Shown: piece by piece, positions 1,738-20,157 of the stretch
Position numbering within the stretch: position 1 is the first letter of the stretch
How the letters are laid out: the number at the start of each line of letters is the position of its first letter
Source: Candidatus Latescibacterota bacterium
GTDB taxonomy: Bacteria > Latescibacterota > UBA2968
Direction: 5' to 3'
NCBI GenBank assembly: GCA_965222605.1
Contig: OZ244960.1
Span: forward strand, 3,328,001-3,392,000
Length of the DNA: 64,000 nt
The notes under the pieces: model-generated
What the model was told of the DNA's origin: nothing
What the model saw: the letters and a program-made list of their open reading frames with translations, nothing else
Database searches by the model: none
Made by a program: the position numbers and the translations under genes

Positions 1738-1766
1738 TTGACCTTATTTTTGAAGTTGGCTATGTT
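1738..1766 (+). promoter_or_regulatory. sigma70-like promoter for small RNA unit 1
   Basis: TTGACC (1738-1743), 17 nt, TATGTT (1761-1766). Confidence 0.55.
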
Positions 1767-1772
1767 CTATAT

Positions 1773-1847
1773 GCCGCGGGTTGCCTCCTATCTCTATTTA
1801 TTACCTCCCTCCCGATAAATAGAGTGCTGTTGGCAGCCCGCTTTTTT
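1773..1847 (+). ncRNA. candidate small RNA 1 (long hairpin, C-rich anti-SD-like loop, U-tract)
   Basis: Stems GCGGGTTGCC/GGCAGCCCGC and CTCTATTTAT/ATAAATAGAG; loop TACCTCCCTCCCG; followed by T6. Confidence 0.55.
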
Positions 1848-1848
1848 A

Positions 1849-1877
1849 TTGACAGGGTTATTTTCGGAATTTATTTT
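1849..1877 (+). promoter_or_regulatory. sigma70-like promoter for small RNA unit 2
   Basis: TTGACA (1849-1854), 17 nt, TATTTT (1872-1877). Confidence 0.55.
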
Positions 1878-1883
1878 GAGTTC

Positions 1884-1934
1884 GCAGTAGAAGCCTTTGA
1901 GGGTGTCGGGAGGGAGCCCTCGAAGGTTTTTTTT
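1884..1934 (+). ncRNA. candidate small RNA 2 (terminator hairpin with G-rich loop complementary to the RNA 1 loop)
   Basis: Stem GCCTTTGAGGGT/GCCCTCGAAGGT, loop GTCGGGAGGGA, T-run. Confidence 0.5.
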
Positions 1935-2006
1935 ATGCTTCACGCGATTGTCAGCGGTTTCCGCTTGGTTGGCAGTCCAATAAGTGAGGAAATGGCGATG
2001 AAGATC

Positions 2007-2031
2007 AACTCCCCGAGTGGGAGTTTTTTTT
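2007..2031 (+). terminator. rho-independent terminator-like hairpin
   Basis: AACTCCC-CGAGT-GGGAGTT followed by T-run. Confidence 0.5.
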
Positions 2032-2034
2032 ATA

Positions 2035-2131
2035 AAAATAAAAAAGAGGCGCCGGTTGGGAGGGTATAACCAACGCCTCAAGGGATGTTGCATGGTAACA
2101 CATTAGACGCATATACGCGGAAAAGAGTTCC
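2035..2131 (-). ncRNA. candidate small RNA 3 with ECF-sigma-type promoter
   Basis: Minus strand GGAAC (2131-2127), N17, CGTCTAA; terminal hairpin GAGGCGTTGGTT-ATACCCTCCC-AACCGGCGCCTC then T6. Confidence 0.55.
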
Positions 2132-19109: not shown

Positions 19110-20157
19110 ACGCGATGTGTGACTTCAAAATTTTACGAGACCGTCAAAATCCAGCGGGTCTCTGTAATTGATAATATTGAGAAAGACACACATGGTATGG
19201 GTTAAGATTTTGGTATGCCACAGGTTCAATAAGTGCCATGCATCTCGCACTTTCATGCGGGCAATATGTAAACGTTCTGTCAATTGTGCATAAACGGTTT
19301 CGACTAATCGCCTTGTGGCTTTCTTCGCTTTGGGCAAAATGAAAGGGGTGCGTTCAGGATTTTCTTTCATATTGGACTTTAAGGGTGTCTTTATGCGTAT
19401 GCGGTAGGTATCAAAACACCTTTTTTGCCAGTCCAAGTCCATAAATGCCGCATCTGCCAAGACGGTTGTCTCTCCCATCGTACCATTCAGGAGTGCGTCT
19501 CGGCAGTTCTTGTCGTGTCCATACGCTTGCAGGATCGGCGCGTGGACAATAAGACCATAATCCGTGATCCTAAGGCCACCCTTAAAGCCAAAATATGCTT
19601 CACTTTTGGCGGCACAAAAGCCTTTTGAGGGGGGAGGGAACTCAAAGACTGGCTCTCTTGTAAATATCTTGCGATAATGTCGCCTTGCCAGTTTACAGAT
19701 CGGTAAGGGTAGCGTATCTATGATCTGGCAGGATGCCTGATGCCCTTCCAAGCTGGCAACAATCCGCTGTTGCATCCACATCTTGACAACCCACAAATTG
19801 GCACATTGACGCACAAAGGCAGGACGGTCTTTCAAAGTGGGAAACCAATCTATGAAGTGTTCTTTCATCTGCTCATAAAGTTTTTTCTGGCTTGAATATC
19901 CCAAAAAGTGACCCACGATTTCTATGGTGAGGCATTCGGCATCACTTAAACCGGGGTCAAAGCCTGCCCGACGGGGCTTGCCATGCACCTTACAGAAAGC
20001 CGGATAGAGTTCGTCTTCAATAAAACAGTAGATTGCAATGACAAAAAGGTCTAAATTATACATCGGAGGTTCCTTTCGTTGAATGGCTTCTTGTTTAGTG
20101 AACAATTCAAGATAGCCGAGGAACCTCTTTTTCGCTATTTAAAGTCACACATCACGT
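19110..20157 (-). mobile_element. IS982-like insertion sequence (1048 bp)
   Basis: 16-bp TIRs ACGCGATGTGTGACTT / AAGTCACACATCACGT; 9-bp TSD CTGGTTCAT (19101-19109, 20158-20166). Confidence 0.9.
19125..20063 (-). CDS. IS982-family DDE transposase
   Basis: LSDAECLTI, IIDTLPLPIC, YFGFK, LADAAF, RRLVETVYAQL. Confidence 0.88.
   Translation of the reverse strand: MYNLDLFVIAIYCFIEDELYPAFCKVHGKPRRAGFDPGLSDAECLTIEIVGHFLGYSSQKKLYEQMKEHFIDWFPTLKDRPAFVRQCANLWVVKMWMQQRIVASLEGHQASCQIIDTLPLPICKLARRHYRKIFTREPVFEFPPPSKGFCAAKSEAYFGFKGGLRITDYGLIVHAPILQAYGHDKNCRDALLNGTMGETTVLADAAFMDLDWQKRCFDTYRIRIKTPLKSNMKENPERTPFILPKAKKATRRLVETVYAQLTERLHIARMKVRDAWHLLNLWHTKILTHTMCVFLNIINYRDPLDFDGLVKF

Follow-up and report, generated by a model that had tools for sequence, protein, structure and literature searches.

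Comparative analysis of a 64-kb stretch of a Candidatus Latescibacterota bacterium genome (the window: 64,000 nucleotides, positions 3,328,001 to 3,392,000 of contig OZ244960.1, assembly GCA_965222605.1) identifies two structured RNA genes at positions 1738-1934. Arranged in tandem, they would each give rise to a small non-coding RNA, independent of the other and read from the plus strand. The first, unit 1, would be a terminator-type double hairpin presenting a C-rich, anti-Shine-Dalgarno (SD)-like sequence, ACCUCCCUCCC(GA), and the second, unit 2, a single terminator hairpin presenting the complementary, G-rich and SD-like UCGGGAGGGAG. The anatomy of the locus, the conservation of the genes, their promoters, terminators and complementarity, and the covariation of the stems are directly established by the comparisons described below. 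We put at about one half the probability that the two are a C-rich anti-SD-like small RNA (sRNA) and a G-rich decoy or partner RNA pairing loop to loop, in the manner of RoxS and RosA. The host genome, a metagenome-assembled genome (MAG) of the Latescibacterota, is a complete single contig of 6.34 Mb with 51% G+C and is 98.7% complete.

Two promoter-hairpin-terminator units in one intergenic gap

The RNA pair sits inside a 609-nt gap between open reading frames (ORFs) in the window's ORF list. The initial annotation, made from the letters of the window, had described two promoter-hairpin-U-tract units with 17-nt promoter spacers, and a consensus scan together with folding recovered both where it had placed them. 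The features of the two units are as follows.

1738..1766, plus strand: putative unit 1 promoter, -35 box TTGACC at 1738-1743, 17-nt spacer, -10 box TATGTT at 1761-1766; 9 of 12 consensus matches
1773..1848, plus strand: unit 1 RNA, about 76 nt, with predicted ends
1805..1815, plus strand: C-rich anti-SD-like arm CUCCCUCCCGA, from the inverted-repeat search
1849..1877, plus strand: putative unit 2 promoter, -35 box TTGACA at 1849-1854, 17-nt spacer, -10 box TATTTT at 1872-1877; 10 of 12 consensus matches
1884..1934, plus strand: unit 2 RNA, about 50 nt, with predicted ends
1906..1916, plus strand: G-rich SD-like arm UCGGGAGGGAG, from the inverted-repeat search

Unit 1 is predicted to fold into an outer stem (1776-1785/1832-1841) and an AU-rich inner stem (1792-1802/1814-1824), topped by the apical loop ACCUCCCUCCC at 1803-1813 and followed by a U-tract with six U at 1842-1847. 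Its fold has a free energy of -32.1 kcal/mol (z -7.5), and none of 200 shuffles was as stable. Base-pair probabilities leave the loop at 1803-1813 fully open (unpaired with p at least 0.99), while 1814-1815 close the stem. The promoter of unit 2 begins immediately after the unit 1 U-tract. Unit 2 consists of one stem (1893-1903/1917-1927) carrying a 13-nt apical region (1904-1916) and ending in eight U at 1927-1934, with a fold of -24.8 kcal/mol (z -5.0).

No conserved ORF was found over unit 1 or unit 2 among the window ORFs and in the genus alignment, and no ORF follows unit 2 before the next terminator in this genome. Three candidate small peptides were rejected: a 120-aa ORF at 1707-2069 spans both terminators, an AUG near the start of unit 1 is missing in several relatives of the genus alignment, and an AUG at 1935 is located beyond the unit 2 terminator. 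With a conserved promoter and terminator for each unit, co-varying stems and no conserved ORF, the proposal of the initial annotation that the region holds two RNA genes and no protein gene is supported by the comparison.

Conservation and structural covariation

The intergenic DNA was matched strongly in all 20 other genomes of the same genus. In the 21-sequence genus alignment, both promoters, both U-tracts and the loop cores UCCCUCCC and UCGGGAGGGA are kept, and the stems change in a compensating way. The unit 1 pattern TTGAC-17-TATGTT is present in 21/21 of these sequences, and a TTGAC(A/G)-17-TA box lies upstream of unit 1 in other genera; we assign the unit 1 promoter from this conservation and from its motif. 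The -35 box TTGACA of unit 2 occurs in 26 of 27 tandem modules (genome G021 has TTGACC) and is retained also in a genus that has no unit 1 upstream. Over the start of the unit 1 -10 box, the sequence (G/C)TTGGGTA is likewise kept across genera (loci L063, L064, L065, L067 and L068 and the genus alignment); this exceeds what a plain -10 box needs and could represent a regulator site or an extended -10 element.

Across two families, the apical cores of both units vary hardly or not at all, and stems and spacers drift. The core UCCCUCCC of the unit 1 loop is identical in all 23 sequences of alignment A2. In the unit 2 motif CGGGAG is invariant, and the core CGGGAGGGA occurs in 22 of the 23 sequences of alignment A3, genome G024 having CGGGAGAGA. 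RNAalifold predicted 21 pairs for unit 1, eight of them with compensatory changes among the 23 sequences, and 14 pairs for unit 2, five of them compensatory; in helix 4, the stem of unit 2, seven of 11 pairs show changes on both sides. The 27 tandem modules have 95.5% of their cells paired and show changes on both sides in 21 of the 41 pairs; none of 500 shuffles reached this, and controls with slid partners gave 42-56% paired. The plus strand folded better than its complement in 23/23 sequences for unit 1 and in 20/23 for unit 2. Because stem covariation goes beyond that of shuffles and folding prefers the plus strand, the alignments identify unit 1 and unit 2 as two structured RNA genes.

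Covariance models built for the two units behaved accordingly in the host genome. Model R1 scored 94.9 bits at unit 1, its one strong match, and additionally found a 38-bit paralogue; model R2 scored 68.8 bits at unit 2, the sole strong match. We searched 53 genomes of the order and a phylum sample made up of family f1 (29 genomes), to which the genus of the window (g1) belongs, its sister family f2 of the same order (19), family f3 (64) and other families (38), with the following outcome.

R1 (unit 1): order 31/53 at E ≤ 0.001, genus 20/20; phylum sample f1 22/29, f2 3/19, f3 2/64 (weak), other families 0/38
R2 (unit 2): order 46/53 at E ≤ 0.01; phylum sample f1 23/29, f2 15/19, f3 2/64, other families 0/38

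Beyond the order, matches to both models were only weak, two of 64 each, and all fell in family f3. Five of 27 pattern matches came from other phyla and were rejected as chance hits, covering just the hairpin tip (model positions 26-50 or 10-66) at 17-22 bits. As judged by these searches, the RNA pair is specific to one order of Latescibacterota.

Complementarity between the two apical regions

The two motifs form an exact 11-nt inverted repeat, 1805-1815/1906-1916 (pair I4 of the inverted-repeat search), and pairing between the apical regions is predicted to yield -24.5 kcal/mol over 12 bp, including one G·U. The 64-kb window holds two exact 11-nt inverted repeats with a spacing of 20-200 nt, where mononucleotide shuffles give 1.75±1.6; the second of them lies at 19377 and 19577. 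Likewise, the promoter consensus scan found three sites in 1500-2600 against 1.5±1.1 in shuffles, which is not significant alone. Since neither count exceeds the shuffles, the sequence of the window by itself proves little, and the weight of the repeat lies in its placement in hairpin loops and in its conservation. A repeated element was considered and rejected as well: the genome contains the 11-mer twice and its complement twice, no hairpin context is seen at the copies outside the locus, and unit 2 is the only copy of its 11-mer outside coding-like sequence in the 6.3 Mb.

The initial annotation had allowed for one long read-through leader with alternative pairing. Both hairpins persisted in the joint 165-nt fold and in a cofold of the two RNAs. 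The nested cofold cannot represent a kissing complex; since it leaves the hairpins intact, any contact between the two RNAs would be of the loop-loop (kissing) kind.

We measured complementarity in relatives as the longest antiparallel helix between fixed windows around the two cores, with composition-preserving shuffles as control. The helix reached 7-12 bp in 37 of 38 pairings and 6 bp in the remaining one. The shuffles averaged 4-6 bp, and in 32 pairings at most 0.4% of them attained the observed length. By lineage, the helix measures 11-12 bp in the genus of the window except for G001 (8 bp), 10-12 bp in genus g6, 11 bp in g9, 10 bp in G036 and 9-11 bp in g11; the shortest are those of G021 (7 bp) and of the tandem copy in G024 (6 bp), whose second unit 2 copy gives 9 bp. 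The complementarity noted in one genome is therefore conserved in relatives from two families.

The nucleotides flanking the core occur in three lineage states, namely CCCGA/UCGGG in g1 (20 of 21) and g9 (2 of 2), CCCGG/CCGGG in g6 (13 of 14) and CCCAA/UUGGG in g11. These states match what direct pairing would predict, although the signal is thin. In the 27 tandem modules the inter-loop helix is 94.6% paired; its double changes were not counted, as they stem partly from the rows of G042 and G021, which are misaligned by one column.

Linkage and gene neighbourhoods

The tandem layout, in which the unit 2 promoter directly follows the unit 1 U-tract, recurs in genera g1, g5, g9 and g2 of family f1 and in g7 and g11 of family f2. 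Outside g1 the tandem loci are those of G024 (g5), G048 and G049 (g9), G021 (g2), G036 (g7) and G042 (g11). The surrounding genes vary: upstream lies an M16 peptidase in g1 and g9, a CAAX-protease-like gene in g5, and genes on the opposite strand in g7 and g11, and downstream of the module in g11 follows an aldo/keto reductase. In g6 both RNAs are present and unlinked: all 15 genomes have the unit 1-like RNA (loop ..CCCUCCCGG), some of them in two copies, and 14 of the 15 have unit 2 at another place in the genome. The g6 unit 2 loci (L122, L114, L117 and others) additionally carry a conserved 5' mini-hairpin, GGUAUCC...GAUACC.

Downstream deletion scar and further C-rich loops

The features around the pair are the following.

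Ending at 1714, plus strand (same strand as the units): peptidase-M16-family ORF, left flank of the gap
1935..2033, plus strand: remnant of a deleted operon (sigma-70-family gene and 60-aa ORF), identified from the gene content of relatives; it bounds the RNA pair and is no part of it
2035..2080, minus strand: terminator hairpin of a possible third RNA, "unit 3", with stem 2046-2057/2068-2079 followed by a minus-strand U-tract
2324-2836: 170-aa ORF of the sodium:sulfate-symporter family, right flank of the gap (Pfam Na_sulph_symp positions 310-469 of 472)

Five genomes of the genus have a sigma-70-family gene (Pfam regions 2 and 4), a 60-aa ORF and a terminator of their own after unit 2. In one of these relatives, G013, the site holds Sigma70_r2 and Sigma70_r4 ORFs, the gene being split, and the 60-aa ORF (MRTE.VDPRY...RFPLGWQSNK), and the deepest members of the genus carry just the small ORF. 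The window retains the first ~20 nt of the operon region, the last ten codons (RFPLGWQSNK, then the stop) and a terminator hairpin at 2007-2025 with its U-tract. An 11-nt direct repeat, GTTTTTTTTAT, stands at 1926-1936 and 2023-2033, and the deletions end in it. Most relatives lost all sequence between the two GTTTTTTTTAT repeats, joining positions 1-234 of the query directly to 325-575, and one RNA contig from relatives joins 1928 to 2024 across the remnant. As a consequence of the deletion, unit 2 now stands alone in this genome, and it is still conserved with no gene behind it. The right-flank ORF at 2324-2836 is likewise a fragment, the C-terminal third only of a symporter gene that is full-length (>479 aa) at this position in G013.

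Unit 3, which the initial annotation did not report, has a minus-strand loop reading AUACCCUCCC, or UUCCCUCCCGA in six relatives. Its hairpin is conserved in the genus and folds at -24.2 kcal/mol (z -4.2); all 18 sequences compared fold better on the minus strand, on which G·U replaces the A·C of the plus strand. A consensus scan and inspection of the minus strand revealed no convincing promoter. Unit 3 is thus possibly another small RNA gene, the third at the locus, converging on unit 2. Hairpins with CCCUCCC in the loop and a T-run number only four genome-wide, unit 3 among them. The paralogue of unit 1 in the host genome (G000:C1:6250047-6250121; 38 bits to R1) has the loop CCCCUCCC and a U-tract, and is followed by two more TTGACA-type promoters and a long leader, then by a gene starting LNAFDY. 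Second R1 matches of 30-41 bits were obtained in 18 of 20 other genomes of the genus, and a match in G023 lies in the gene context of the paralogue. By analogy with RosA, which faces RoxS and FsrA, one G-rich RNA may here face several C-rich RNAs.

Two further observations concern the surroundings. A 37-nt hairpin at 2144-2180 with a 12-bp stem and the loop CAGCCGGGGUAUAGG is highly conserved; its substituted stems fold better on the minus strand (6 of 19 sequences), and a similar stretch occurs in G023, from another genus. Elsewhere in the host genome, at least 11 identical copies of a 261-aa ORF (MTTEMLIIDLFCRVDDQ...) are found, for instance at C1:645743, 2108673 and 2480207, their upstream sequence being identical too; this ORF probably belongs to an insertion sequence.

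Discussion

Transcription, pairing, the direction of control and the targets are inferred. Under the favoured reading, unit 1 would act in trans and without Hfq, its C-rich loop pairing with G-rich ribosome-binding sites of mRNAs so that translation initiation would be blocked. Unit 2 would bind the loop of unit 1; kissing would nucleate on GGGAG/CUCCC, and if the AU-rich upper part of the inner stem of unit 1 opened, the contact could grow to 10-12 bp. Unit 2 would in this way titrate or destabilise unit 1 as a decoy or "sponge". The opposite direction, in which unit 1 would silence unit 2, is equally possible.

Both partners have features that such roles call for. By its predicted fold, the unit 1 loop is a C-rich single-stranded region of the kind with which RoxS/RsaE-like RNAs pair with G-rich ribosome-binding sites, and it has ACCUCC in common with the 3' end of the genome's own 16S rRNA, GGAUCACCUCCUUUCU. 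A scan upstream of long ORFs across the genome listed 173 starts with an 8-mer complement 3-16 nt upstream as candidate targets. On the modelled fold of unit 2, the G-rich region complementary to the partner's C-rich region, as in sponges of the RosA/RsaI type, presents GGGAG unpaired (p at least 0.87). On whether unit 2 is a stand-alone transcript the observations diverge: its promoter and terminator motifs are conserved, the RNA data show only contigs that bridge the unit, and in family f2 it may be a leader.

Several observations weigh against the favoured reading. The initial annotation had placed the 11-nt complement almost entirely in open loops, which is correct for unit 1, apart from the stem-closing 1814-1815, and only partly so for unit 2. 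There, only position 1905 and GGGAG at 1908-1912 are clearly unpaired (p at least 0.87), amounting to 5-6 nt of the motif, and base-pair probabilities assign the remainder of the apical region to weak intra-loop pairs. Covariation between the loops, a check proposed in the initial annotation, is present in the form of pairing-compatible flank states by lineage, but it is weak as judged from the alignments. Only two double switches at the lineage level were seen at the loop flanks, and helices formed with a partner from another lineage are hardly shorter than those with the own partner (8-12 bp against 9-12 bp) when G·U is allowed. Five exceptions were found as well: G001 (CCCAA/UCGGG, 8 bp), G036 and G028 with A·C at the helix end, the G024 tandem copy with an internal A·C (6 bp), and G021 (7 bp). 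The CCCUCCC/GGGAGGG core could have been kept for separate reasons, anti-SD mimicry on the one side and SD mimicry on the other. Among the 173 candidate ribosome-binding sites, no start stands out. In g6, the U-tract of unit 2 is weak and about 45 nt separate its end from the SD and start codon (AUG) of an aldo/keto reductase gene; on this arrangement the unit 2 homologue of family f2 may be the leader of that gene.

The expression data gave no sign of discrete transcript ends. Thirteen RNA runs contained 5-9% of the sampled words, and four runs from four studies were assembled over the locus. Metatranscriptome contigs from relatives of 90-95% identity span 1660-1934 at a depth of 2-5, like the flanking genes, and two contigs bridge both units together with the second promoter (X4, 1760-1934; X7, 1760-1928 joined to 2024-2217). 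Other contigs run from 1660 to 1855 and 1879, and none covers 1951-2004. Read-through or DNA carry-over would explain this coverage just as well as small RNAs would, and the coverage decides nothing among them.

We weighed three other explanations. The one that survives best, rather unlikely in our view, takes the units as two independent regulators with no mutual action. Unit 1 would mask G-rich ribosome-binding sites, unit 2 would, for example, bind the anti-SD tail of 16S rRNA or C-rich targets, and the complementarity would be a by-product of the SD/anti-SD code or of an inverted duplication. The SD/anti-SD-like nature of the invariant cores CCCUCCC and GGGAGGG speaks for this explanation, as does the ACCUCC shared by unit 1 and the 16S 3' end; however, the complementarity reaches 2-4 nt past the SD/anti-SD core, into flanks that exist in three pairing-compatible lineage states, and unit 2 pairs with the 16S tail, read from the 16S 3' end, by GGAGG only. 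The small loss of helix length upon swapping partners between lineages also agrees with independent action. So does the plus strand of unit 3, whose hairpin repeats the unit 2 loop (direct repeat D6) and suggests an inverted-copy origin. As to linkage, the two genes are unlinked in g6, whereas six genera retain the tandem arrangement although the genes around it change.

A second explanation, which we hold to be unlikely, sees in unit 2 a present or former cis-acting leader or attenuator of a downstream gene that is a conserved target of unit 1 and was orphaned here by the operon deletion. The position of the g6 unit 2, close upstream of the reductase start, leaves no room for a promoter and gives it the look of a leader; in g11 the module is likewise followed by this reductase, the five genomes mentioned above have a sigma-70-family gene behind unit 2, and 1935-2033 is the remnant of that sigma-70-family operon. 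Nevertheless, the downstream genes differ from lineage to lineage (reductase, HU-like, response regulator, sugar-isomerase-like, sigma factor or none, the names being partly read from translations), and in the genus of the window the unit 2 terminator is strong, with 6-8 U, and a conserved block separates unit 2 from the downstream operon. Moreover, about 15 genomes of the genus with no gene behind unit 2 keep an invariant loop and a co-varying stem, a sign of purifying selection. The arrangement in family f2 keeps open that the "sponge" unit 2 may have begun as, or may still be, a target of unit 1.

The third explanation, ordinary intrinsic terminators in an intergenic relic, with unit 1 ending the M16-peptidase gene and the 11-mer arising by chance, is very improbable and largely refuted by the comparative data: an M16-family gene does end at 1714 on the same strand, the RNA contigs from 1660 to 1855 and 1879 stop just past the unit 1 terminator, and the 11-nt inverted repeat is no rarer than chance, yet both promoters are conserved, the upstream gene lies on the other strand in g7 and g11, and the loop cores have stayed (nearly) constant in two families despite the changes in their stems. 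Conservation of the loop is not usual for a terminator, and an identity as intrinsic terminators only was rejected for these hairpins despite their U-tracts.

If the favoured reading of a C-rich sRNA with a G-rich loop-pairing partner is true, the pair would be the first described riboregulatory module of Latescibacterota and a compact case of an SD-masking C-rich sRNA co-inherited with its G-rich antagonist as a tandem cassette. The logic of RoxS and RosA would then extend beyond Firmicutes, and the minimal pair of ~76 nt and 50 nt would be tractable in vitro or in a heterologous host. To our knowledge, no member of the Latescibacterota has been cultured and studied genetically, and a literature search found no publication on small RNAs of this phylum or on this RNA pair. 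As a quite speculative and doubtful extension, such an SD-mimic/anti-SD-mimic pair might set the cell-wide capacity for translation initiation. One or more C-rich RNAs (candidates being unit 1, its paralogue and unit 3) would mask strong ribosome-binding sites across the genome. Unit 2, as the single G-rich RNA, would act as their stoichiometric buffer or would itself bind to free 30S subunits at the anti-SD tail, and the tandem cassette would have been inherited throughout the order.

Comparison with known systems

The Rfam search proposed in the initial annotation yielded no family at gathering score. With Rfam 15 the whole window gave no match at the gathering threshold, and an E-value search of 1500-2500 returned ten matches, all far below gathering, the best being P31 on the minus strand (20.4 bits against 40). 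Homology to the RsaE/RoxS family was not detected in 1500-2500 even at E ≤ 10. Neither CsrA (PF02599) nor Hfq (PF17209) was found in the 98.7%-complete genome, and control genomes matched both; a CsrA sponge or an Hfq-dependent pair is therefore unlikely. We rejected a protein sponge of the CsrB/RsmZ type on the same ground and on the presence in unit 2 of only one hairpin with two GGA.

In plasmid antisense control by kissing loops (ColE1 RNAI/RNAII, and attenuation in pT181 and pIP501), contact starts loop to loop and can extend, and where control works by attenuation, a leader carrying a terminator serves as the target. The two RNAs of such a plasmid pair are cis-antisense; they come from opposite strands of one stretch and so are fully complementary, whereas the units described here stand in tandem on one strand with a match of 10-12 nt.

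Cuckoo RNAs of Rhizobiales and Rhodobacterales consist of 2-4 adjacent hairpins with CCUCCUCCC in each loop (PMC4615179). As far as the accessible part of that source describes them, they share with unit 1 an anti-SD-like C-rich motif in a hairpin loop, a conserved loop and variable stems. However, unit 1 carries just one C-rich loop, enclosed by an outer stem, its motif CCUCCCUCCC differs from CCUCCUCCC by one position, and its host belongs to another phylum, the Latescibacterota, on which grounds we rejected membership in the cuckoo RNA family. A complementary partner RNA is present here, and none is mentioned for cuckoo RNAs in the accessible part of PMC4615179. The same source reports that a UCCC hairpin loop of RNAIII of Staphylococcus makes the first contact with the ribosome-binding site of target mRNAs. 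Unit 1 has a C-rich, UCCC-containing hairpin loop as well; unlike RNAIII, which is long, multi-hairpin and peptide-encoding, it measures ~76 nt and has no conserved ORF.

The closest analogue is the system in which the C-rich-region sRNAs RoxS and FsrA of Bacillus subtilis are sponged by the G-rich stand-alone sRNA RosA, with RsaE/RsaG/RsaD and RsaI as the counterpart in Staphylococcus aureus (PMC8216469). In the accessible part of that source, one sRNA has a C-rich single-stranded region, which RoxS-type RNAs use on mRNA targets, and the complementary G-rich partner RosA is laid out from promoter to terminator, both as seen here. Neither RoxS/RosA nor RsaE/RsaI is described there as requiring Hfq, and Hfq was not found here either. 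There are also differences. The pair described here has no sequence or Rfam relationship to RoxS/RosA, comes from a different, uncultured phylum and is known from sequence analysis alone. RosA has three G-rich regions and RoxS several C-rich regions according to the same portion of the source, in contrast to the minimal one-motif hairpin of each RNA here. Finally, unlike RoxS and RosA, the genes of unit 1 and unit 2 adjoin each other head to tail, an arrangement that different genera have preserved. Thus, the kind of pair is already known, as far as these sources go, from the C-rich sRNAs and G-rich sponge of Firmicutes (PMC8216469) and the C-rich loop RNAs of alphaproteobacteria (PMC4615179); what is new is the minimal one-hairpin form, the conserved head-to-tail linkage and the phylum.

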